A DNA stretch of 64,000 bases from Octopus sinensis (lineage: Eukaryota): assembly GCF_006345805.1 (NCBI RefSeq), contig NC_043006.1, forward strand, positions 50,716,001 to 50,780,000, read 5' to 3'. Below, piece after piece: positions 1,761 through 33,918 of this stretch. Within the stretch, counting starts at the first letter, position 1; each line of letters starts with the position of its first letter. Under the pieces are notes generated by a model, which saw only the letters and a list, made by a program, of their open reading frames with translations, ran no database searches and was not told the DNA's origin. The position numbers were made by a program, and so were the translations under genes.

Positions 1761-2809
1761 GTTACCAGCAGAATTATATTGAATGGTGGTAAATATTTAT
1801 CAGTCAAATACTTTATGTCGTCTCTAGCAATCTGCTGCGAATTCTGATGCTGATGAGCAATAAATCGTGGCTCCATTTAAGATGTACGTCAATCTGGTTA
1901 TAGAAGGTCACCTAACTAAGATTGGAAAATGTCTCTCTATTCAAACTTGTAAGCAAAAACAAAAATCAAATCTAACCCGTCTCAAGCTTCAACAATAAAG
2001 TCCGAGTAAATATCTAAATAGCTGTAATTTCTATTGAAATGGAATAGACAGAAACAATAAACGGATAATAAAATAGTATTATACGATAAAATGTTTCACA
2101 AATCTATTTATCTCACATTGCTTATAAGCTGACACTTTACAATTATATTTTCATTTAAACGTAAATCTTCCAGTCAAAGACACCTCCACGCTACTCTACT
2201 ATAGTATTGATACAACTGACGCAGAGGGGAGTGGGATCTACAGTCAGTCGCACAATGTGCTAAATTAAGAGCCACATCTCTCTCAAATCATATCCTAATG
2301 TCTTTAAATAAAAAGTAGAGTAGGGGAAAGGTATAATCAGAATAATGTGGCCCAAGGTAATTGAAGAATAAGAAAAATATTGGCGGACGATCGACAGCTT
2401 CAACACATTTGGTGGGCGGGTGACAGCTGTTATATTCATTGTGAAATTTGACTGAAGAACTGTTGAGACGATGACGTCTTTACTGCTTGCATTCATATGT
2501 CTACTCGATCAGAACTGACTTGCGATAAAAAATGAGACTACGATACTTGTCATTTATATGATTTGTTTTTGATTGCTTGAAGATAAGCCAGATTGGGTAG
2601 GCTTACGATTAAATGTACACCTGTCGTGATCACCAAGTTCATTTTTCCTTTTATAATTATTTTCTGTATGATTGCATTTTCATTTTTATACAGTAGTGTG
2701 TGATTTGGCAAGCATTTGGTGTCGATTTCTTGCAGATGGAACGTTCACAAAATGTATCTCCGTTGGCTGGTGCAGTTTCTTTGGTTTGTGATTGTAACAT
2801 TGTTTGGCG

Positions 2810-3625: not shown

Positions 3626-4102
3626 CAATCAGGAGTCACGCCATTAGCCACAAAGAATAATCTCTAATTTGAGCCAACTCTAATCTATTAAGAATGCGTG
3701 TGGCAACTTGAAGATCCACCCACCACACGCGATAGACTGGTGGTTGCACGGGCGCGAAAGCTACATTGTTACCCTCATTCCGTAAACGGTGGCTTTTAAC
3801 GGGTGGAGAGCTGAACCATCCTGGGGCACAGAGGTTTTGCAACCTAGACTAGGGTCTGAAAGTTTTACCACACCATAGTGGGTTACACCATGGTTCCTCT
3901 GCTTTGTGGCAGAAGTAGGAAGAAAGAGTAAGAGAAAGTTGTGGTGAAAGAGTACAGCGGGGTTCACTACCCCTCCTCACCGGAGTCTCGTGGAGCTTAG
4001 GTGTTTTTGCTCAATAAACACTCACAATGCCCGATCTGGGAATCGAAACCGCGTTCTTAGACCGCGAGTCCGCTGCTATAACCACTGGGCCATTGCGCTT
4101 CC
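3595..4102 (-). mobile_element. tRNA-derived SINE, family C head (ggaggcgcaatggcccagtgg), with a long tail ending in (GAA)n
   Basis: A-box/B-box-like head (tggcccagtgg...gtttcgattcc) shared with 28398, 31521 and 35910. Confidence 0.8.
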
Positions 4103-4129: not shown

Positions 4130-4328
4130 GCAATTATGATATTGAGAATGATGATGATCATCGTCATCATCATCATCATGGTTGCAGTAGAGGTAAAGAT
4201 GCTGGAAGTAATACTATCTCTGATGAGAATTCTAGTGAACTTTGTTGTGGTAAGTGTGAGTGTACGCGTGTTTGATTCTGTAAGTGTGAACGTCTTTATT
4301 CATGTTTGTGTGTGCTTATGCATTTGTG

Positions 4329-4369
<41 letters not shown>

Positions 4370-4960
4370 GTGATGATGCTCGTCGTAGAAGTGGAGGCGA
4401 TGTTAGAGTTACAGACCCTGGTGATGTACATGTCTACATTGTTATATATTTAGAATTGAATTCTTCAAGATATTCGTTACAATATTGAATCATTTGGGAA
4501 TGGACGGAATCAAATCACAACACATCATCGATTGATCGTGTTGAGGCAGTTTCATTGTCTTCAATGCTGGTAGCATCAGTAGTAATGGTGGTGGTAGTGG
4601 TGGTGAGAAGCGTTGTCGTGGCGGTTGTAGTAATGATACTGATGTGGATTGTGCTGTTGATAGTGACGAACATGATGATGTTGAAGGTAGTTGTATTGGA
4701 GGTGGTGATGGTGTGGGTGAGCTTGGATGGTGATTGCAGTGATAATATTGATGGTTATTGGATATGATGGTCATGGTGATGTTGGAATGGCGGTGAGGGT
4801 AGTGATGATTACAAGGATGGTTAAGATAGTAATCCTACTAGTAGTAGTCGTGGTGGGTCTAGTAAGGATGGCGGTGATAATTATGGGAGTGCTGGTAGCG
4901 GTGTAGAGGTGGCAATTGTGGTTGTTGTGATTGTGGTGGTGGTGGTATTGGTGGTATTCA
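4130..4960. repeat. (GAT)n/(GGT)n/(GTA)n low-complexity tract
   Basis: Directly visible. Confidence 0.85.
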
Positions 4961-22325: not shown

Positions 22326-23085
22326 TGTAGCCCTTCTATCACGAATTCTTTTTTGATGCCTTGTGGGAGTTCGTTGGCGTAATTCTCTAGCCAGAATTGA
22401 ATTGCTTCTATTCCTAGGTAGTGGGGGATATTCGATTAGAAGGATACTAATAGGATCATTTTGTTTATTGTTTTAGGAAGGTGACTGAGCATATTCAGGT
22501 CGTTCCTTATATAGCTTTTGACATGCTTGAGGAATGGTTTTAAGAGGTTATCTAAATACTTAGTGAGGCGGTGGGTTTCGCATGCGGGACCTGCTGCTTT
22601 AGGTTTCAATTTGAAGTCAATGGGAGCAGTGACTTTGATTATTATGTCTGTGGCTTTTCTTCATGCGTTACTTATTTTCTCAATTTTGTGTATCTTGGGA
22701 ATACCGTAGAATTGACTGATTTTACTTTTGAAATTGGTCGTATAGTCATATTCTTTGTCGGTGAGCCCTTCTTTGTATAGGTTTAACAGGATTTTCATTA
22801 TTTTCTGCTGACTGTAGTGTTCGCCCTTTTCCTAATATGTTGTGCCTTCCAATATGGATAGTACTAAAGTTATATAGAATACCGTGTCCATTAAGACACG
22901 GTATTCTCTTTATTACATAATACAGACCCCTTTTGAACGCGTCTACAACAAATGATATATCCACAACGGCCCTAGAATAACACAAATACACACGGAAATA
23001 TTAAAAATGGTGCACTCAAGAGATTCCCAAGAATTCATTTAAAAACAGTCCCAATCACTGCTATAATCCATAACGTGCTAATTTT
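22326..23085 (-). pseudogene. Penelope-like element RT fragment
   Basis: Minus frame: SQFYGIPKIHK...KLKPKAAGPACETHRLTKYLDNLLKPFLKHVKSYIRNDLNML...LVSF...[15 protein letters not shown]. This matches the PLE FYGLPKIHK/RPI region; it contains stops. Confidence 0.85.
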
Positions 23086-25032: not shown

Positions 25033-26443
25033 TTGGAGCAGGAAAAAAAAACACCCGAGACATCGTACTTTGACAGAAGTCACACACAAGCTTCTGTCAA
25101 TGTACTGAATTGTCACCCGTGGACTGGAGACACACTAATTTGGTTGGCGCAACTAGAGGCAAGCTTTAAAGCCAACAGAATGACAAATGAGGAGCAGAAG
25201 TACTACATCATGCTTAGTAATTTGCCTCCACCTCTAAGCAATGAAATCATAGATCTTTTACTGAACCCTATGGAGCCAGTTTTGTATTCTTCGATTAAAG
25301 AAGAAATATTGAAGCGTACGTCAAGTTCGAAGCAAAAAGAATTCGCAAAATTATTTAACAACGAAGAGCTGGGTAGTAGAAAGCCACACAGTTTCTACGA
25401 AGGATGAACGAACTGCTTGGGAATCAGCAAATAGAGGAATCATACCTCAAAGAGGTATTTTTCAATAAACCGCCGCACAAAACCCAAACTTTGCTCTCGG
25501 CCGTAAAAAAACAGAATTCAATTCAGCAGTTGGCGGATCTCGCAGACGGTATTTTGGAGTTATCGTCTAGAGAAACTATTAGTGCGATTCCATCTATTTC
25601 AAGTGAAATACAAGAGTTTAAAAAATTTTACGAGAAACAATTCGACGTATTAACGAAGAAAATAGAGAGCTTACAACTTGAGAGAAACGGCCGCTCCGAT
25701 CACCAAAATTATACAAGATGGCGCAGGAAATCAAAGAGCCCTAGCTTGAAAAGAAACACCATATGTTGGTATCACGCTAAATTCGGAGAAAATTCTTTCA
25801 AATGCATCAAACCCTGTGCGTTTGATTTCCTTGCTAAAAAAAAAGGGAAATTCGGAAAACTTCTAAACCATAGATTGGAGGCGACGAAGTCTGTGGATAA
25901 CATTATAAAAAGTCGCGTGTTTTTCATCTACGACCTGAACTCGAAAGAAAGATTTCTCGTGGATACAGGAGCAGCGTGTTCAATATGGCCTGTAAGGCTC
26001 TTAAAACAAAGAAACCAACCTGTGTATATGACGTTCAAGCGGTGAACCAGTCTGAAATCCAAACATTTGGAGAGATTAGCTTGACGCTCGATATAAATTT
26101 ACGAAGAGAGTACAAATGGATCTTCATAGTAGCGGATTTACCATATCCAATATTAGGAGCGGATTTTTTGGCGCACTATCATTTAATGGTAGATGTGAAC
26201 AAACAAAAATTAATAGACACACAAACCTCCTTAAAGACTCAGGGAATGAGATGCAGGAGAGCAACAATTAGTCCGCTATATTTCATAGCGTCCTCAGAAA
26301 ATAGGTATCACAGGATTTTGAAAAATTATCCAAAAATCACAAAACAGTTAGCTCTAAATACCACGTGTGCACATTCGGTAGAACATCACATCACCACACA
26401 AGGACCACCGAGTTTTTCTAAGCCGAGAAGATTATCTCCATAA
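25033..26443 (+). pseudogene. Gypsy gag-protease (frameshifted)
   Basis: W..QLEASF, EELG.RKP and CWYHAKFG...KCIKPC in gag; FLVDTGA aspartic protease; PILGADFL. Confidence 0.9.
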
Positions 26444-26449
26444 AAATTG

Positions 26450-27515
26450 AAGGTAGGTCATTTACTTTATTCACTGACCATAAACCATTAACATATGCAT
26501 TAAAAAATTCTTCGGAGAAATATTCTCATAGAGAAATTAGACATCTTGATTTTATTTCACAGTTTACTGTAGATATACGTTATATCAAGGGGGTCGAAAA
26601 TTCAGCAGCGGGTGCACTTTCTAGAATGAATGTAGATGCATTAAACTCATTAAACACTATAAATTTGGAAGAAATGTCTAAGGATCAAGTTACGGATAAA
26701 GAATTTTCTTTATATAAAAATTCCGATTCAACTGCTTTAAAATTTAAAATGTTGCCGATACATTGGTGTAATTCACATATTTGCTGTGATATTTCTACAG
26801 GTTTTTCGAGACCATTTGTGCCTGAAAAGCATAGGAAAAATGTTTTTTCTAGCCTACATAATTTATCTCATCCATGTATAGAAGCTTCGTTAAAGTTATT
26901 ATCAAGTCGTTTTGTTTGGCCTGGCATGAATAAAGATATTCGTTCATGGGAAAAGTCATGTATGCAATGTCAGAAATCTAAAGTGCAGCGGCACATCAAA
27001 GCACCATTAGGTACATTTGCAAATCCTGATGCGAGATTCCAACACATCCACATCGATATAGTGGGACCCTTACCTCCATGCGAGGATAATATGTATTTGT
27101 TGACGTGGGTCGATCGCTTTTCGAGATGGCCCGAGGCTTATCCGATTAAAGACGTATCTGCAGTAACTATAGCAAAAACTTTGTTTACCAATTGGATGTC
27201 TAAATTTGGCATTCCGAATACACTGACAACAGATCGTGTTAGACAATTTGAGTCTAGCTTGTTCGCAGAATTCAATAAATTGTTGGGGGATTAATAGAAT
27301 TCGTACAACTTCATATCACCCACAGTCTAATGGAATGGTAGAAAGATTCCATAGACAGTTAAAAGCTTCAAGAACTTATTCTAATTCTAACGATTGGCTG
27401 GAGGCTTTGCCAGTGGTATTGTTGGGAATTAGAAGTGCGGTTAAAGAAACTATACAGTATTCTCCGGCTGAACTTTAGTACGGAACAACATTAACTCTAC
27501 CTGCTCAAATGTTCG
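26450..27515 (+). pseudogene. Gypsy RNase H C-terminus and integrase (frameshifted)
   Basis: FTDHKPL, IRYIKG.EN..A.ALSR; HNLSHP...CMQC zinc finger; HIDIVGP, TTD..RQFES, YHPQSNGMVERFHR. Confidence 0.92.
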
Positions 27516-28399: not shown

Positions 28400-28656
28400 G
28401 CGCAATGGCCCAGTTGATAGGGCAGCGGACTCGCGGTCTTAGGATCGCGGTTTCGATTCCGAGACCGGGCGTTGTGAGTGTTTATTGTGCGAAAACACCT
28501 AAAGATCCACGAGACTCTAGCAGGTGGTAGTGTGGATCCTTGCTGCACTCTTTCGCCACAACTTTATCGCAGTCCTTCTTCTGTTGGCCTGCTCGCTTAG
28601 CCAACCCAGCGGGTGTGCGTCATCTGAAGGCTATAACAATGCGAAGCGCATTGTGA

Positions 28657-28659
<3 letters not shown>
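28398..28659 (+). mobile_element. Family-C SINE nested in the microsatellite of a minus-strand family-B SINE (28150-28345)
   Basis: ggcgcaatggcccagttg head; duplicated at 35910-36172. Confidence 0.85.
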
Positions 28660-28730
<71 letters not shown>

Positions 28731-28775
28731 ATGTATATAATATATATATATATATACATGTTTATAGTGTATATG

Positions 28776-28812
<37 letters not shown>

Positions 28813-29262
28813 ATATGTATGTACATATATGTATATATATATATATATATTATGTGTTTATGTGTATATGTATGTATACATATATATATATATGTTTGTG
28901 TATATGTATGTATATATATGTATATATATATATATATGTTTTATATGTATTGTAGTATATATAATTATATATAATTTCAACAAATTGAGGGCAAATTAAT
29001 TAATTATTAATCAATTTTCACCAAGTGTTCAGTATGCAAGGGACCATTCAAGGCGAATTCAAATTATTACATTATATAAAAGGGCTTAGTAAAATAAATT
29101 ACTTTGCCGCATACTGAACTCATTAGAAATAGCAGCTAAAAAACTTTTTTAAAGCTATTTCTAATACTTAAAGAAAATCTCTCTCATATATTAGTGTTTG
29201 CTTAATTCAACTCACAAAAGTTTGGGGGTAAGGACATCGAAAAATCAAATGCTAAGGTTATT

Positions 29263-29314
29263 TGAGAACGTACGTTTCAAGATTAGTCAAAACAACACTT
29301 CTATCATCAGCTCA
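29263..29314 (-). ncRNA. Putative minimal type I hammerhead ribozyme
   Basis: Reverse complement of 29692-29743. Confidence 0.6.
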
Positions 29315-29691
29315 GAAATTCCTTGGTTTGGATTTGAAACACTGAAAATAAGAACATACCTTTCGAAGATCTGCTCGTAACTAACAGTGCCAACAAATTC
29401 AAATAAGCAAGCGAAGAATCTCTGTTTCTCCCCTTTCCACCAGCGTGGGTTAAAAATCATCAACACTATGCTTATTTCGGTAAATCCGAAGTTAATCAGA
29501 GGAGATTAATTAATCAGAAGGGCAAAATTATTAATTATCATTTTCACCAAGGTTCAGTATGGGACATTCAAGGCGAATTCAAATATAACATTATTAAAGG
29601 GCTTAGTAAAATAATTTAGTTAGTTTTACGAGCAGATCTTCGAAAGGGTATGTCTTATTTTCAGTGTTTCCAAATCCAAACCAGGAATTTC

Positions 29692-29743
29692 TGAGCTGAT
29701 GATAGAAGTGTTGTTTTGACTAATCTTGAAACGTACGTTCTCA
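29692..29743 (+). ncRNA. Putative minimal type I hammerhead ribozyme
   Basis: tgag CTGATGA t-aga-agt..act-aa-tct-t GAAA cgtacg T T ctca. Stem I is tgag/ctca, stem III is palindromic and the triplet is GUU. Confidence 0.6.
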
Positions 29744-30230
29744 AATAACCTTAGCATTTGATTTTTCGATGTCCTTACCCCCAACTTTTGTGAGTTGAAT
29801 TAAGCAAACACTATATATGAGAGAGATTTCTTTAAGTATTAGAAATAGCTTTAAAAAAGTTTTTTAGCTGCTATTTCTAATGAGTTCAGTATGCGGCAAA
29901 GTAATTATTTTACTAAGCCCTTTTATATATGTAATAATTTGAATTCGCCTTGAATGGTCCCTTTGCATACTGAACCACTTGGTGAATTGATTAATAATTA
30001 ATTAATTTTGCCCTCAATTGTTGAAATTATAATTAATCTCCCTCTGATTAATGCTTCGGATTTTACCGAAATAAGCATAGTGTTTGATGATTTTAACCCA
30101 CGCTGGTGGAAAGGGGAGAACAGAGATTCTTCGCTTGCTTATTTGAATTTGTTGGCACTGTTAGTTACGAGCAGATCTTCGAAAGGGTATTTTCTTATTT
30201 CGTCAGTTTCCAATCCAACCAAGGAATTTC

Positions 30231-30282
30231 TGAGCTGATGATAGAAGTGTTGTTTTGACTAATCTTGAAACGTACGTTCTCA
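30231..30282 (+). ncRNA. Putative minimal type I hammerhead ribozyme
   Basis: Identical to 29692-29743, 539 bp downstream. Confidence 0.6.
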
Positions 30283-30621
30283 AATAACCTTAGCATTTGA
30301 TTTTTCGATGTCTTACCCCCAAACTTTTGTGAGTTGAATTAAGCAAACACTATATATGAGAGAGATTTTCTTTAAGTATAGAAATAGCTTTAAAAAGTTT
30401 TTTAGCTGCTATTTCTAATGAGTTCAGTATGCGGCAAAGTAATTTATTTTACTAAGCCCTTTTATATAATGTTATTATATATATATATATATATGTTTAT
30501 GTGTATAGGTATAGAATATATATATATATATGTATGTGTAATATATATATAATATATATGTGTTATGTGTATATATATAGATATATATAATATTTTATGT
30601 GTATTATATATAATCTATATA

Positions 30622-30661
<40 letters not shown>

Positions 30662-30705
30662 ATATATATATATATATATATGTCTATGTGTATATGTATA
30701 TATAT

Positions 30706-31398
30706 GTAGTCCTTCTATCACGAATTATTTTTTGATGCCTTGTGGGAGTTCGTTGGCGTAATTCTCTTGCCAGAACTGAATTGCTTCTATTCCTAGGTAG
30801 TGGGGTATATTCGATTAGAAGGATACTAATAGGATCATTTTGTTTATTGTTTTAGGAAGGTGACTGAGCATATTCAGGTCGTCCCTTATATACCTTTTGA
30901 CATGCTTGAGGAATGGTTTTTAGAGGTTATCTAAATACTTAGTGAGGCGGTGGGTTTCGCATGCGGGACCTGCTGCTTTAGGTTTCAATTTGAGGTCAAT
31001 GGGAGTAGTGACTTTGATTATTATGTCTGTGGCTTTTCTTCATGCGTTACTTATTTTCTCAATTTTGTGTATCTTCTTGTATAGGTTTAACATGGATTTT
31101 AGGTCTCTAATTATTTTCTGCTGATTGTAGTGTTCGCCCTTTTCATAATATGTTGTGTCTTCCAATATAGATAGTACTAAAGTTATATAGAATACCGTGT
31201 CCATTAAGACACGGTATTCTCTTTATTACATAATACAGACCCCTTTTGAACGCGTCTACAACAAATGACATATCCACAACGGCCCTAGAATAAAACAAAT
31301 ACACACGCAAATATTAAAAATGGTGCACTCAAGAGATTCCCAAGAATTCATTAAAAAACAGTCCTAATCACTGCTATAATCCATAACGTGCCAATTTT
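30706..31398 (-). pseudogene. Penelope-like RT fragment, paralog of 22326-23085
   Basis: Nearly the same sequence, with a ~74-bp deletion that removes FYGIP. Confidence 0.85.
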
Positions 31399-31520
31399 AA
31401 GTCACATGACCTTTTAACACCTTACTACTTTCATACCACCTATATTCCTTTTTACTCTCCCTTCTCTTTCTTCTTTTCTTTGTCTTCTTCCTCCTTCATA
31501 ACTTTACTACTATTGCTATA

Positions 31521-31902
31521 GGAGGCGCAATGGCCCAGTGGTTAGGGCAGCGGACTCGCGGTCTTAGGATCACGGTTTCGATTCCGAGACCGGGCGTTGT
31601 TAGTGTTTATTGTGCGAAAACACCTAAAAAGCTCCACGAGGCTCCGGCAGGGGATGGTGGTGATCCCTGCTGTACTCTTTCACCACAACTTTCTCTCACT
31701 CTTACTTCCTGTTTCTGTTGTACCTGTATTTCAAGGGACCGGCCATGTCACTCTGTGTCACGCTGAATATCCCCGAGAACTACGTTAAGGGTGCACGTGT
31801 CTGTGGAGTGCTCAGCCACTTACACGTTAATTTCACGGGCAGGCTGTTCCGTTGATTCGGATCAACCGGAACCCTCATCGTCGTAACTGACGGAGTGCTT
31901 CC
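31521..31902 (+). mobile_element. Full-length family-C SINE with an 11-bp TSD
   Basis: tRNA-like head; ACTATTGCTAT at 31509-31519 and 31903-31913. Confidence 0.9.
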
Positions 31903-32523
31903 ACTATTGCTATTTAGAATAACACCTACGCAATTTTTATAAACAAAACATTCAAAAAAGATGTTTCAGGAATTTTACAATTACTACTACCCTCCACAGC
32001 AAGTCATTTTCTCCTCCTCCCCTTCTTCTTCATCTTCGCCTCCTCTCCTTTTTCTCCTTCTCCTCTTCCTCCCGCTTCTTCTTCATCTTCTTCTCCCTAT
32101 CAAGAATTCACAACGATCTCAAACCCACAAGAGTAAACAAGAAAAACAGACGCAGGTAGAAACAAGGAAAATGACACTTTTATTTGAACACTATGCAAAT
32201 ATTCATTTAAAAATCTTTTCTTTTAATTTTTCCAAAATTTAATTGTCTTCCGTACTTAGAGTTGATAATGTCTCATTGTCTGAAACCGGTAATGAAATGG
32301 TTTTTAATAAAATTATTTTAGCATTTTCTATCTTGACTTTATATATATATATATAAGATATAATATATATATATATATATCTATATATTATATATATTAG
32401 ATATGTTATATATATATATATATATATATATAATTATATATATATATTATATATATATATATATATACAATTATATATATATATATACATATATAGTATA
32501 TATATATATATATATATACATAC

Positions 32524-32588
<65 letters not shown>

Positions 32589-32656
32589 TATATATATATA
32601 TAATATATATATATATTATATATATATATATATATATGCATATATATATATATATA

Positions 32657-33918
32657 TAATAATATAAAATAACAGGAACCAAGAGGTTGAACGAAACGAC
32701 GATCGGAACGAACCTGACGCGGGGCGCTGTCAGACAATAATGGGATAAATAAAAATATATGCATCATACAAGCATTATGTACGTACGCTACATCTACATG
32801 TATATATACATGCATATATAAATATTATACGTGATACAGGACACCACAATAGGACGTAGAACGGGAAAAACAAAAAAAACACAAAAAACAAGAAAACGAA
32901 AAAAACGCAGTTACAGGACGTGCTACACAGGAAAAAACCCCCGTCATTAGCTGTCGCTAGTAGACTCAAGCATGTTTCGAAGCAAAGACAGAACACTAAT
33001 CCCCAAGGCCTTCCTGCGAGAGAATTAAAATAAAATTCCAAGCAGCGGGGCAAAATGAGTACGAACACGAACAGGACTAAAAATAAAACTGCAAATAAAA
33101 TACCTGTACAAAAAATACAAATAACATACAAAACCAGAAAATAAAAAGAGAATACATCAGGAATCAAACACACAAGAGAACGAACGAAAAGGCCTTTTTT
33201 TCTGGCATAACGAAGGATACTGTGGCAGCGCGTGGAAGGCAGTCTTTTCAGTGAGGAGCAACGTGTAAAAGAAATTTTTATAGGCTGGCAGTAAGGAAGA
33301 AGGAAGGAGGAGGGAGACACGCGGACTGAGAGAGAGAGGAGGAGTGGGAGGGAGAGAGTGGAGAGGGTAAAGCAAAGGGAGAGAATTCCGCGTCTTAAAT
33401 ATAATAATAATATAAAAATAACAGGAACCAAGAGGTGGAACGAAACGACGAATCGAATTCGTCTATGCCAGAAAAAAAGGCTTTTTCGTTCGTCCTCTTG
33501 TGTGTTTGATTTCCTGTATCGCATTCTCTTTTTATTTTCTCGTTTTGTATTTATTTGTATTTTTTGTACATGTATTTTTATTTTTCCTGTTCGTGTTCGT
33601 ACTCATTTTGCCCCGCTGCTTGCAATTTTAATTTAATTCTCTCGCAGGAAGGCCTAGTGGATTAGTGTTCTGTCTTTGCCTTCGAAACATGCTTGAGTCT
33701 ACCAGCGACAGCTGATGACGGGTTTTTTTTCCTCGTGTAGCACGTCCTGTAACTGTTTTTTTCATTTTCTTGTTTTTTGTGTTTTTTTTGTTTTTCCTGT
33801 TTCTACGTCTTATTGAGGCGTCCTGTACTCACGTATAATTATTTATATATGAATGTATATATACATGTAGATGTAGGTACGTACATATATGTTTGTATGT
33901 ATGCATATATTTTTATTT
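32657..33918. mobile_element. ORF-less Penelope-pLTR-like repeat: ~750-bp monomer, short direct restart, then an inverted copy
   Basis: 32745-33213 is inverted at 33460-33918; the 32657 start recurs at ~33405; homologous to 16556-17872. Confidence 0.6.

Follow-up and report, generated by a model that had tools for sequence, protein, structure and literature searches.

Non-LTR retrozymes and Penelope-like elements are the described systems closest to the repeat array reported here. The life cycle proposed for non-LTR retrozymes consists of cleavage, ligation to a circle, and target-primed synthesis of tandem cDNA (Cervera & de la Pena 2020, PMC7229834), and Penelope-like elements are candidate mobilisers of these retrozymes (PMC7229834; preprint 10.64898/2026.07.22.740005). 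Penelope-like elements themselves are marked by one-end tails, tandem or inverted insertions, and a bias toward (TA)n targets (Craig et al. 2021, PMC8557442). Hammerheads with a short palindromic stem III act as dimers (PMC6765202, citing Lunse et al. 2017 and Cervera & de la Pena 2014). Neither "cephalopod" nor "octopus" occurs in the text of PMC7229834. No paper bringing together a retrozyme, target priming, Penelope, and a head-to-head arrangement was found among the main texts searched in the open literature.

The array described below represents a single insertion of a young ~540-bp repeat without an ORF, which bears a Penelope-type hammerhead motif; the array was probably formed as two arms in (TA)n by Penelope-like double priming on one small RNA. 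We place the repeat among the known non-LTR retrozymes, as a probable cephalopod-type member. Cleavage, RNA circles, and the mobilising enzyme are what we infer in addition.

The array, its family, and their outer ends

The window, which is the whole 64-kb stretch of DNA analysed, contained exactly three copies of the motif CTGATGA-N25-GAAACGTACGT, two on the plus strand at 29696-29738 and 30235-30277 and one on the minus strand at 29268-29310, and no match was obtained in 100 dinucleotide-preserving shuffles of the window. The array spans 28964-30472 and is a single insertion of a ~540-bp family. When compared by BLAST to the monomer at 29740-30278, it resolved into two head-to-head arms, with ~1.2 units inverted and ~1.6 units direct. 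The features of the locus were as follows.

28659 to 28973, no strand: left flank, an imperfect (TA)n microsatellite that is the insertion target (Tandem Repeats Finder, period 2, 158 copies)
28964 to 29616, minus strand: left (inverted) arm, ~1.2 monomers, running from monomer position 298 to 1 and then from 539 to 164 (BLAST)
29255 to 29322, minus strand: inverted-arm hammerhead-type motif (pattern matched exactly at 29268-29310)
29619 to 30472, plus strand: right (direct) arm, ~1.6 monomers, made up of monomer positions 421-539, 1-539, and 1-193 (BLAST)
29684 to 29751, plus strand: hammerhead-type motif 1 (match at 29696-29738), predicted cut at 29739/29740 between GUU and C, from sister-subfamily alignment and pair counts
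29838 to 29881, plus strand: near-perfect 44-nt hairpin at monomer positions 99-142, also present at 30377-30419 (plus) and 29122-29165 (minus)
29930 to 30031, plus strand: segment of ~102 nt between the two 3'-end sites, monomer positions 191-292, here inside the plus-strand arm
30223 to 30290, plus strand: hammerhead-type motif 2 (match at 30235-30277), predicted cut at 30278/30279
30476 to 30705, no strand: right flank, an imperfect (TA)n microsatellite (Tandem Repeats Finder, period 2, 119 copies)

The outward 3' end of the left arm lay at monomer position ~298, the "292 site," directly after GTTGAAATTATA, and its inward 5' end lay at 164. The right arm had its inward 5' end at 421 and its outward 3' end at ~193, the "190 site," directly after CCCTTTTATATA. 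The inverted repeats of the array (I1 to I6) were 90-98% complementary, and its direct repeats D2, D5, and D8 were spaced 538-539 bp apart. The inner junction (29470-29622) was covered by none of the contigs, 60-90-nt unitigs, from four public DNA runs. The GC content of the unit was ~33% by base counts. The initial annotation had described three identical hammerhead motifs, a plus-strand pair 539 bp apart and a third on an inverted arm, in an array without an ORF whose copies differ mostly by indels. Each of these points held: the pattern matches were as described, no stop-to-stop frame inside the array exceeded 78 aa, and the substitution distance between copies was only ~1%, compared to a gapped BLAST identity of 93-98%.

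Two internal parts of the unit were also compared with a 586-bp sister family. The stem of the 44-nt hairpin, which had been folded following a chance match to CRISPR-DR50 (E 0.89), was kept in the sister family with a different loop. The 102-nt segment, which is the outer "tail" in any arm with its end at 292, was the best-conserved long block between the two families.

The repeat family is young and very abundant. We refer to the ~540-bp unit as family A, which has six subfamilies, with the window belonging to subfamily a, and to the 586-bp sister as family B. Family A had 1,311 candidate loci dispersed over all large contigs, and the 40 of these 1,311 candidates that were scored yielded a sample of 287 matches at 93-98% identity. 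The substitution distance between family A arrays was 1.26%. ORF-less arrays of up to 9 units were present at dozens of the sampled loci.

The outer ends of the arrays were nearly invariant. Among two-armed arrays, 30 of 31 in family A paired an end at ~190 with one at ~292, in both orientations (14 versus 16), the exception being a 190/108 pair, and 10 of 11 in family B had the same ~190/~292 pair, with one odd array. Like ends (190/190 or 292/292) were found in 0 of the 42 two-armed arrays (31 from family A and 11 from family B). The 3' ends of the arms always pointed outward, and the outer ends fell only at ~190 and ~292, two TA-rich positions that each abut (TA)n. The inner ends varied through 5' truncation, each sampled array having its own inner junction, and single arms with 5' truncation also occurred. 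Flanking sequence was (TA)n at almost all ends of the sampled arrays; at one array located in non-TA DNA (L015), a target duplication of ~9-10 nt or more was present.

The longer arm could be either one, as seen in L074 (3970 versus 694) and L082 (403 versus 2274). A fold-back (snap-back) origin of the second arm was rejected, because either arm can be longer and the order of variants in L071 was not mirror-symmetric. Tandem copies together with inverted 5'-truncated ones, a tail on one side only, and a microsatellite target, which constitute the insertion signature of Penelope-like elements, were all present in the repeat, and the two-armed arrays are this signature, here with a 102-nt "tail." Dispersal, mobility, and non-autonomy of the retrozyme type were likewise found, in the form of the 1,311 candidate loci, the fixed 3' and variable 5' ends, and the intact RT/GIY-YIG elements elsewhere in the genome.

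The hammerhead-type motif

The window unit carries a hammerhead-type RNA motif, with self-cleavage predicted from its sequence. In the inverted arm, the parts recognised were both stem I strands, CUGAUGA, stem II, GAAA, the palindromic ACGUACGU, and U17. Exact motifs numbered 3,212 genome-wide, compared to 1 for reversed-pattern controls. CUGAUGA, GAAA, and ACGUACGU were invariant across the six A subfamilies and family B; in the same alignment, 88.9% of stem cells were paired, compared to 23-46% when the partners were slid, and four stem pairs had changed on both sides. The core was kept in the subfamilies, in family B, and in family D, which is older and dispersed (10 copies) and in which 4 of 7 stem II pairs showed compensatory changes. 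Position 17 was U, A, or C and never G in all 17 of the 17 sequences compared. The usual 10.1/11.1 pair of hammerheads is G-C; family A and most family D copies had U.U or G.U.

The variant present in the window, with U.U at 10.1/11.1 and a GUU cut triplet, is the weakest hammerhead of the superfamily. Its MFE structure was not a hammerhead (z +1.1), and 179 of 200 shuffles folded equally well. The core motifs of a type I hammerhead were in the right order in all three units, with no match in Rfam and no hammerhead fold for the window variant. Rfam 15 detected no hammerhead in the window at the gathering score or in 28900-30600 at E<=10, nor did Rfam detect one in family B (to E<=10) or in the autonomous elements described below. 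Penelope-type hammerheads with a loop-less stem III probably fall outside the Rfam models, and we do not take the silence of Rfam as strong evidence against a hammerhead.

The motif has the type I topology and the extremely short palindromic stem III of minimal Penelope-type hammerheads, for which a dimer is expected; the dimer is here a prediction. ACGUACGU is an 8-nt palindrome without room for a loop, and in the predicted cofolds of each of three variants it formed pairs from one molecule to the other. The initial annotation had pointed to dimeric action as the expectation for hammerheads with such a stem III. The palindrome and the predicted dimer pairing agreed with this. Only subfamily e and family B gave a complete double hammerhead, in which stem III is intermolecular and 8 bp long; the predicted dimer of the window variant buries GAAA.

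None of ~95 arm ends lay at the predicted cut site, and there was therefore no genomic footprint of cleavage. An apparent enrichment of 5' ends at this site (4 of 69 in family A and 2 of 26 in family B) was a query-start artefact at position 1, with the sequences running 5-19 nt beyond it. None of the runs that contain the unit was recorded as RNA. Four runs guessed to be RNA had pieces of it as short contigs, in which neither RNA ends nor circles are visible, and a joint that goes back by 540 is expected from a tandem array as it is from a circle.

Proposed template, priming, and enzyme

We compared variants between the two arms of the same array. In the seven arrays with at least two full units per arm, 17 array-specific variants were fixed in both arms and 0 were fixed in one arm only. 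The substitution distance across arms (0.90%) was equal to that within an arm (0.96%), and both were lower than the 1.26% measured between arrays. Variants recurred along the arms at period 2 in L066 and at period 3 in L071 and L064. A>G changes weakly exceeded T>C changes, both among private variants (26 versus 17, p 0.04) and among array-wide variants (6 versus 3, p 0.2); the excess was too weak for RNA-editing scars, which were set aside as evidence.

In the mechanism that we propose, a Penelope-like endonuclease/reverse transcriptase would nick both target strands and prime DNA synthesis twice on one small RNA, with the two target 3'-OH ends annealing via TA microhomology to sites that bound one ~100-nt segment of that RNA. 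Both cDNAs would run across several units, and a template switch would join them in the middle. The template may be a circular RNA, either a monomer or a small oligomer, copied round and round as in the retrozyme model; a circle is suggested because arms reach 9 units and because, in some of them, variants recur with a period of 2 or 3. Predicted hammerhead cleavage followed by host ligation would make such a circle. Two counterpoints concern the template. The period-2/3 patterns imply oligomeric templates with several copies of each priming site, and a monomer circle with one site of each kind therefore cannot simply explain the unlike ends. The same patterns could also have arisen from later unequal crossing-over.

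It is unlikely, although worth weighing, that the template was an uncleaved, linear multimer produced by read-through transcription of an existing array and inserted by the same two-sided target priming, with the hammerhead playing no part in making it. Arrays with as many as 9 units are available as sources, the window variant of the hammerhead looks weak, and no arm ends at the cut site. Every multi-unit arm holds intact, uncut hammerhead junctions, which is equally compatible with a re-ligated circle and with a linear multimer that was never cleaved, and an enzyme complex gripping one 190-292 segment could impose unlike ends on an RNA of any topology. However, a transcript leaving an arm would stop in flanking DNA and not at a fixed site, and the many 190 and 292 sites in a multimer lead one to expect like ends, which were seen in 0 of 42 arrays. 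The 17 versus 0 variants fixed in both arms and the period-2/3 recurrence are also easier to obtain via a short cyclic template, and the hammerhead core is conserved across diverged families. We consider it very improbable that the repeat is satellite-like and spread at the DNA level by unequal crossing-over, segmental duplication, and palindrome formation: it is tandem and non-coding, with many small indels between copies and a higher-order periodicity in some arrays that unequal crossing-over could produce, but it occupies >1,000 candidate loci over all large contigs, each sampled array has its own inner junction and yet the same two outer sites in (TA)n, 5'-truncated single arms exist, a target duplication is present at one array in non-TA DNA, and an RT/GIY-YIG element shows the same signature.

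That element belongs to the family of the RT fragment located at 30707-31222 on the minus strand, 236 bp from the array. Pfam gave no match to the fragment. A full ORF of this family contains RT, with GIY-YIG at its C terminus, and at least 7 copies with an open 784-aa frame were present among the matches listed. The family is abundant, Neptune-like, autonomous, and (TA)n-targeting, and its copies have (TA)n ends, with a tandem pLTR and an inverted 5'-truncated copy also seen in the family; a one-sided tail of ~38 nt was seen in one copy (L041). The label "Penelope RT fragment" given in the initial annotation was right, because intact relatives settle its identity, but the fragment and the array are unlinked. 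The fragment is part of a separate, rearranged Penelope-like insertion (30707-32340) that has its own (TA)n flanks within the same (TA)n tract as the array, and tblastn of the local Penelope-like ORFs matched this neighbouring insertion only. That insertion showed no significant DNA similarity to the monomer, and local alignments between the monomer and the neighbour-family pLTR did not score above shuffles (z 1.5 and -0.05). The unit itself has no ORF and thus no autonomous Penelope-like ORF (RT and GIY-YIG).

Whether the monomer ever flanks an intact RT/GIY-YIG ORF, or exists only as the pLTR of an autonomous element, had been raised at the outset. Neither the ACGUACGU hammerhead nor monomer homology was present beside the ORF at any of the 30 GIY-YIG loci fetched, two of which (L123 and L130) had separate A-like insertions nearby only, and the ORF-less arrays of up to 9 units at dozens of sampled loci speak against the second case. 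Two resemblances were discarded as too short to count: TTTCACCCTT, which the autonomous family and family B both have near the tail end, and a hairpin match of 43 nt (72%, E 0.26). The monomer can hardly be the pseudo-LTR of an autonomous Penelope-like element, of which the window would hold a solo or partial copy; an RT fragment does lie 236 bp away, hammerheads occur in the pLTRs of Penelope-like elements (PMC6765202), and Xenopus retrozymes resemble pLTRs (preprint 10.64898/2026.07.22.740005), but up to 9 consecutive units are ORF-less across 41 sampled arrays of families A and B, the adjacent fragment is a separate insertion, the neighbour pLTR is 300 bp long and not significantly similar, with a different hammerhead-like motif (UUGAAAA...ACCGGU), and the ACGUACGU motif was beside the ORF in 0 of 30 GIY-YIG loci.

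For the double-priming mechanism proposed above, the enzyme would be provided in trans by an autonomous (TA)n-targeting Penelope-like element. The Neptune-like family next door is a candidate source; it leaves the same two-site signature, with a ~38-nt tail. As a counterpoint, an autonomous element with a homologous pLTR or the ACGUACGU hammerhead was not found in the neighbour pLTR or the 30 GIY-YIG loci. We put forward tentatively, as a version that may well not hold, that each insertion is a single event in which a Penelope-type complex takes one circular ribozyme RNA, either a monomer or a small oligomer, primes on it from both nicked (TA)n strands at two fixed sites separated by ~100 nt, and keeps copying round the circle in each arm. 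In that case, rolling-circle target-primed reverse transcription would have its first genomic footprint in the obligatory 190/292 end pair, and the one-sided "tail" and tandem/inverted structure of Penelope-like elements generally, long unexplained, would be accounted for.

Comparison with known systems

The route by which a small ribozyme RNA returns to DNA has not yet been demonstrated, and a link between non-LTR retrozymes and Penelope-like elements is suspected; in the non-LTR retrozyme literature, tandem cDNA from a primed circle and mobilisation by Penelope-like elements are both only proposed (PMC7229834; preprint 10.64898/2026.07.22.740005). The present family offers clean, countable footprints: strict (TA)n targeting, two fixed priming sites always present as an unlike pair, arms with common array-specific variants, and no ends at the ribozyme cut site. 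With it, the retrozyme class reaches a genome of cephalopod size and gains larger units, of 540-586 nt; the family also adds a hammerhead clade that retains U.U or G.U where G10.1-C11.1 is the norm, and explains, for genome annotation, thousands of head-to-head repeat arrays in TA microsatellites. The proposal that the locus is a candidate retrozyme stands in so far as it is an ORF-less, tandem, hammerhead-bearing repeat of the retrozyme/Penelope kind; its weaker side is the window hammerhead and the lack of arm ends at the cut site.

Like the non-LTR retrozymes described in PMC7229834, the repeat lacks an ORF and is built of AT-rich units in tandem, each predicted here to carry a type I hammerhead, and has many dispersed copies that co-exist with Penelope-like elements. 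Its unit is 539-586 bp, compared to RNAs of ~170-400 nt and repeats of 150-450 bp with GC <50% and no ORF, LTR, PBS, or PPT in that group (PMC7229834), and its hammerhead is of the minimal Penelope type, with a 2-nt "loop" and palindromic ACGUACGU, whereas most invertebrate retrozymes have the canonical loop-loop form (PMC7229834). Targeting of (TA)n is strict here, in contrast to that group. The marks of non-LTR retrozymes also include expression as linear and circular unit-length RNAs and hammerhead self-cleavage in vitro (PMC7229834), which for the present family are predictions. The sections of PMC7229834 used for this comparison describe no non-LTR retrozyme with head-to-head arms and a pair of fixed unlike ends.

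With the minimal hammerheads of the Penelope type (PMC6765202), the motif shares type I topology, a very short palindromic stem III, and, in sister variants, a predicted double hammerhead; it differs in residing in a non-autonomous repeat, in having U.U or G.U at 10.1/11.1, and in that its activity is a prediction only. With Penelope-like elements (PMC8557442), the repeat shares partial tandems plus an inverted 5'-truncated copy, a one-end tail, the (TA)n bias, and a short palindromic stem III. Unlike them, it lacks an RT/GIY-YIG ORF, repeats its entire unit as many as 9 times, and has a tail of 102 nt, compared to 30-40 bp (PMC8557442). It also differs in having no detectable homology to the local Neptune-like pLTR.

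In the "twin priming" of L1, cDNA synthesis on a single RNA starts from each of the two nicked target strands, which leaves an inverted arm joined to a direct arm. The arrangement proposed here is similar, in that an inverted and a direct arm would derive from one RNA. It differs in having fixed internal starts ~100 nt apart and several units per arm, and its arms overlap in content, whereas those of L1 "twin priming" represent consecutive parts of the RNA.

Organization of the array and its family

Reading of window positions 28600-31400 and a pattern search identified three identical copies of CTGATGA-N25-GAAACGTACGT, at 29696-29738 (+), 30235-30277 (+), and 29268-29310 (-), and no matches were obtained in 100 dinucleotide-preserving shuffles. 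The pattern search agrees with the initial annotation, which had placed two such hammerhead motifs on the plus strand and one on the minus strand of an inverted arm. The repeat unit was numbered from window position 29740, the first base 3' of the predicted cut, and BLAST resolved the array into 1.2 inverted and 1.6 direct units joined head to head.

The array and its flanks, in window coordinates (arms from BLAST)
28659-28973, imperfect (TA)n, left flank
28964-29616, minus strand, left arm, monomer positions 298 to 1, then 539 to 164
29619-30472, plus strand, right arm, monomer positions 421-539, 1-539, 1-193
30476-30705, imperfect (TA)n, right flank

The array had been described as lacking an ORF, and its stop-to-stop frames were found to be no longer than 78 aa. 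Rfam 15 returned zero families for the whole window at gathering score and zero hammerheads in 28900-30600 at E<=10. In an open frame at 26422-27478 (+), an integrase zinc-binding domain was matched at 2.8e-17 and an rve core at 5e-11; this LTR-type retroelement fragment is unrelated to the hammerhead array.

When the genome (2.72 Gb, 13,516 contigs) was searched with the window monomer, 1,311 first-look candidates were obtained, and the 40 that were scored yielded 287 matches with 93-98% identity, often in runs of 2 to 9 units. A comparison of 129 full units drawn from 37 arrays gave a substitution distance of approximately 1%, the remaining difference consisting of small indels. Exact hammerhead motifs with the window's stem III numbered 1,216 (N10-25), 1,541 (N26-55), and 455 (N56-75) in the genome, compared to 0, 0, and 1 for the reversed-pattern controls, and stem II distinguished several subfamilies. 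Family B, a sister with a 586-bp unit and 818 candidates, could be aligned with the window's family, A, across the full unit, best at positions ~90-300 plus a few short blocks. The family to which the window array belongs is very large and young. Contigs from two sequencing runs with the same organism label (X14 and X16) carried, at the joint 30180->29659, a unit variant with 35 additional letters upstream of the hammerhead, which may be a further subfamily.

Insertion ends and the template of the two arms

In all sampled arrays the left arm lay on the minus strand and the right arm on the plus strand, so that both 3' ends faced outward. The outer ends fell at two sites only, directly after CCCTTTTATATA (~190) and directly after GTTGAAATTATA (~292), and nearly all continued directly into (TA)n; a histogram of the sampled arrays showed inner ends spread across the unit, the pattern that 5' truncation would give. 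If the ends were chosen independently, like ends would be expected in about half of the arrays. Of the 31 family A arrays in which both ends could be seen, 30 paired ~190 on one arm with ~292 on the other, one was 190/108, and none had like ends; the 292 end lay to the left in 14 arrays and to the right in 16. Family B independently replicated this pattern, with ~197 paired with ~300/307 in 10 of 11 non-redundant arrays, one odd pair, and no like ends. Single-armed, 5'-truncated arrays (five in A and five in B) had their inner end directly against flank DNA, and the target of one array in non-TA DNA (locus L015), ATAAGGTCG..., was duplicated. The possibility that the second arm is a fold-back copy of the first was ruled out because, in the sampled arrays, either arm can far exceed the other in length.

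Variants were compared in the seven arrays with at least two full units per arm. Seventeen were fixed in every unit of both arms, part of them unique to their own array among those sampled, and none was fixed on one arm and missing from the other. The distance across arms (0.90%) was equivalent to that within an arm (0.96%), and that between arrays was higher (1.26%). Both arms probably derive from one template. Along the arms of family A arrays, variants recurred at period 2 (L066; ABAB) or period 3 (L071 and L064; abcabc), and their order in L071 had no mirror symmetry about the junction. This recurrence fits a short cyclic template, a dimer or trimer as circles would provide, that was copied again and again, although later unequal crossing-over could mimic it. 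The predicted ribozyme cut marked neither the beginning nor the end of any arm, and the few arms that seemed to stop there extended 5-19 nt past it, so the template ran unbroken through the hammerhead sites, which were either never cut or re-ligated after cutting.

The hammerhead and its relatives

The motif consists, in order, of the stem I 5' strand, CUGAUGA, stem II, GAAA, ACGUACGU, H17, and the stem I 3' strand, and its topology is type I under the conventional numbering and rules (type I, H17, 10.1/11.1). The 8 nt of stem III are palindromic and leave no space for a loop. According to the accessible text of PMC6765202, hammerheads with such a stem III are of the Penelope type, said to act as dimers.

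The hammerheads of six A subfamilies and B were aligned (seven sequences). The three core blocks were unchanged, H17 was U, U, U, A, A, U, and C, and stem I contained A-U/C-G and U-A/C-G exchanges as well as a C.A mismatch repaired differently in two lineages. In the drawn structure, which was derived from these same seven sequences (effectively two to three lineages), 88.9% of cells were paired, compared to 23-46% with slid partners, and four pairs changed on both sides.

An older, dispersed, non-tandem family, D (10 copies; L096 and L099-L107), is 60-67% alike across roughly 0.4-1 kb. Its hammerheads have a core and ACGUACGU stem III identical to those of A and B and a covarying stem II of ~70 nt, with compensatory changes in four of the seven basal pairs; H17 was A in seven copies, C in two, and U in one. 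No ORF or RT was found near the ten loci.

At 10.1/11.1, B has G-C and subfamilies d and e of A have G.U, whereas four of the six A subfamilies, including that of the window, have U.U, as do 5 of the 10 D copies; U.U is therefore a clade feature and not a private defect of the window locus. The MFE fold was a hammerhead for B (z -2.1) and, without significance, for subfamily e, and was not a hammerhead for the window variant (z +1.1). Cofolded dimers of e and B were predicted to form a double hammerhead, and that of the window variant an over-long stem III with GAAA buried. For the superfamily, we regard the motif as a genuine hammerhead under selection, with its predicted activity in the window's subfamily uncertain.

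The pseudo-LTRs (pLTRs) of local RT/GIY-YIG families (L041:7372-7440 and L130:2355-2400) contain a hammerhead-like motif with UUGAAAA or UUGAUAA in place of CUGAUGA, possibly a U3-A8 exchange of the C3-G8 pair, a 4-5-bp stem II, GAAA, and either ACCGGU or ACAUGU as a 6-nt palindrome. Stems I and II were present in the MFE fold of the L041 motif, and Rfam made no call on the motifs of these families. Hammerhead motifs with other 8-nt palindromes (ACUCGAGU and ACGAUCGU) occur at two GIY-YIG-bearing loci (L111:2621-2678; L116:886-943 and 977-1034), so a distinct stem III word seems to go with each Penelope lineage.

Relation to Penelope-like elements and to retrozymes

A Penelope RT fragment had also been reported beside the array. 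The fragment at 30707-31222 (-) does match a Penelope-like family (5,273 candidates), but it belongs to a separate insertion. This family has a 4,366-bp unit, a 300-bp pLTR, an inverted 5'-truncated copy upstream, and ends that continue into (TA)n.

Rearranged Neptune-like Penelope derivatives in the window
30707-32340, separate from the array, own (TA)n flank 32340-32666
Joined pieces of 30707-32340, in unit positions: inverted internal RT piece 2009-2616, minus strand; 3' pieces 3834-3881, 4241-4285, and pLTR 4473-4652, plus strand
22328-22952, second copy, same arrangement

The array adjoins the derivative because the two inserted into a single microsatellite; array-type and Penelope-like sequences are likewise co-located at L038, L055, L123, and L130. 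Small two-armed insertions in (TA)n abut Penelope-like 3' ends at L038:166-605 (family B) and L130:2600-2870 (a further relative, ~65-71% like A and B), again through a shared target.

In the Penelope-like copy at L041, the inverted arm halts directly after ...TTTTTTCA and the direct arm extends ~38 nt beyond. This extension is the one-sided tail known for Penelope-like elements, for which the accessible text of PMC8557442 describes such tails, tandem and inverted insertions, and a (TA)n bias. The 190/292 rule is a Penelope-like insertion signature with a 102-nt tail. No homology was found between the unit and the pLTR of the neighbour family, and none of 30 GIY-YIG loci held an autonomous element with the ACGUACGU hammerhead; we therefore infer the source of the enzyme only from the shared target and the signature.

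The two fixed TA-rich ends as an unlike pair, the variable inner ends, the variants common to both arms, and the multi-unit arms are the basis of a proposed mechanism. An endonuclease would nick a (TA)n tract on both strands, and the two 3'-OH ends would anneal via TA microhomology to the sites on either side of one ~100-nt stretch within a single RNA. The two cDNAs would then extend 5'-wards across several units, and a template switch would join them head to head. A circular RNA, monomer or small oligomer, would best account for the periodic variants and for arms that reach 9 units, and a circular template agrees with the retrozyme model in the accessible text of PMC7229834. Less probably, the template would be a linear multimer that stays uncleaved and that the enzyme complex holds at one 190-292 segment.

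The element fits among the non-LTR retrozymes. It also fits the proposal, made for vertebrates only in the accessible text of a preprint (10.64898/2026.07.22.740005), that retrozymes of the non-LTR kind are non-autonomous Penelope-like derivatives. The words cephalopod and octopus are missing from the accessible text of PMC7229834, and no description of head-to-head retrozyme insertions was found in the open literature searched. Compared to known non-LTR retrozymes, the octopus element differs in its unit of 539-586 bp, its minimal Penelope-type hammerhead, its strict (TA)n targeting, and its clean two-site rule. With its predicted cleavage and circles and its putative mobilising enzyme, it belongs to a known kind and adds a useful mechanistic footprint.
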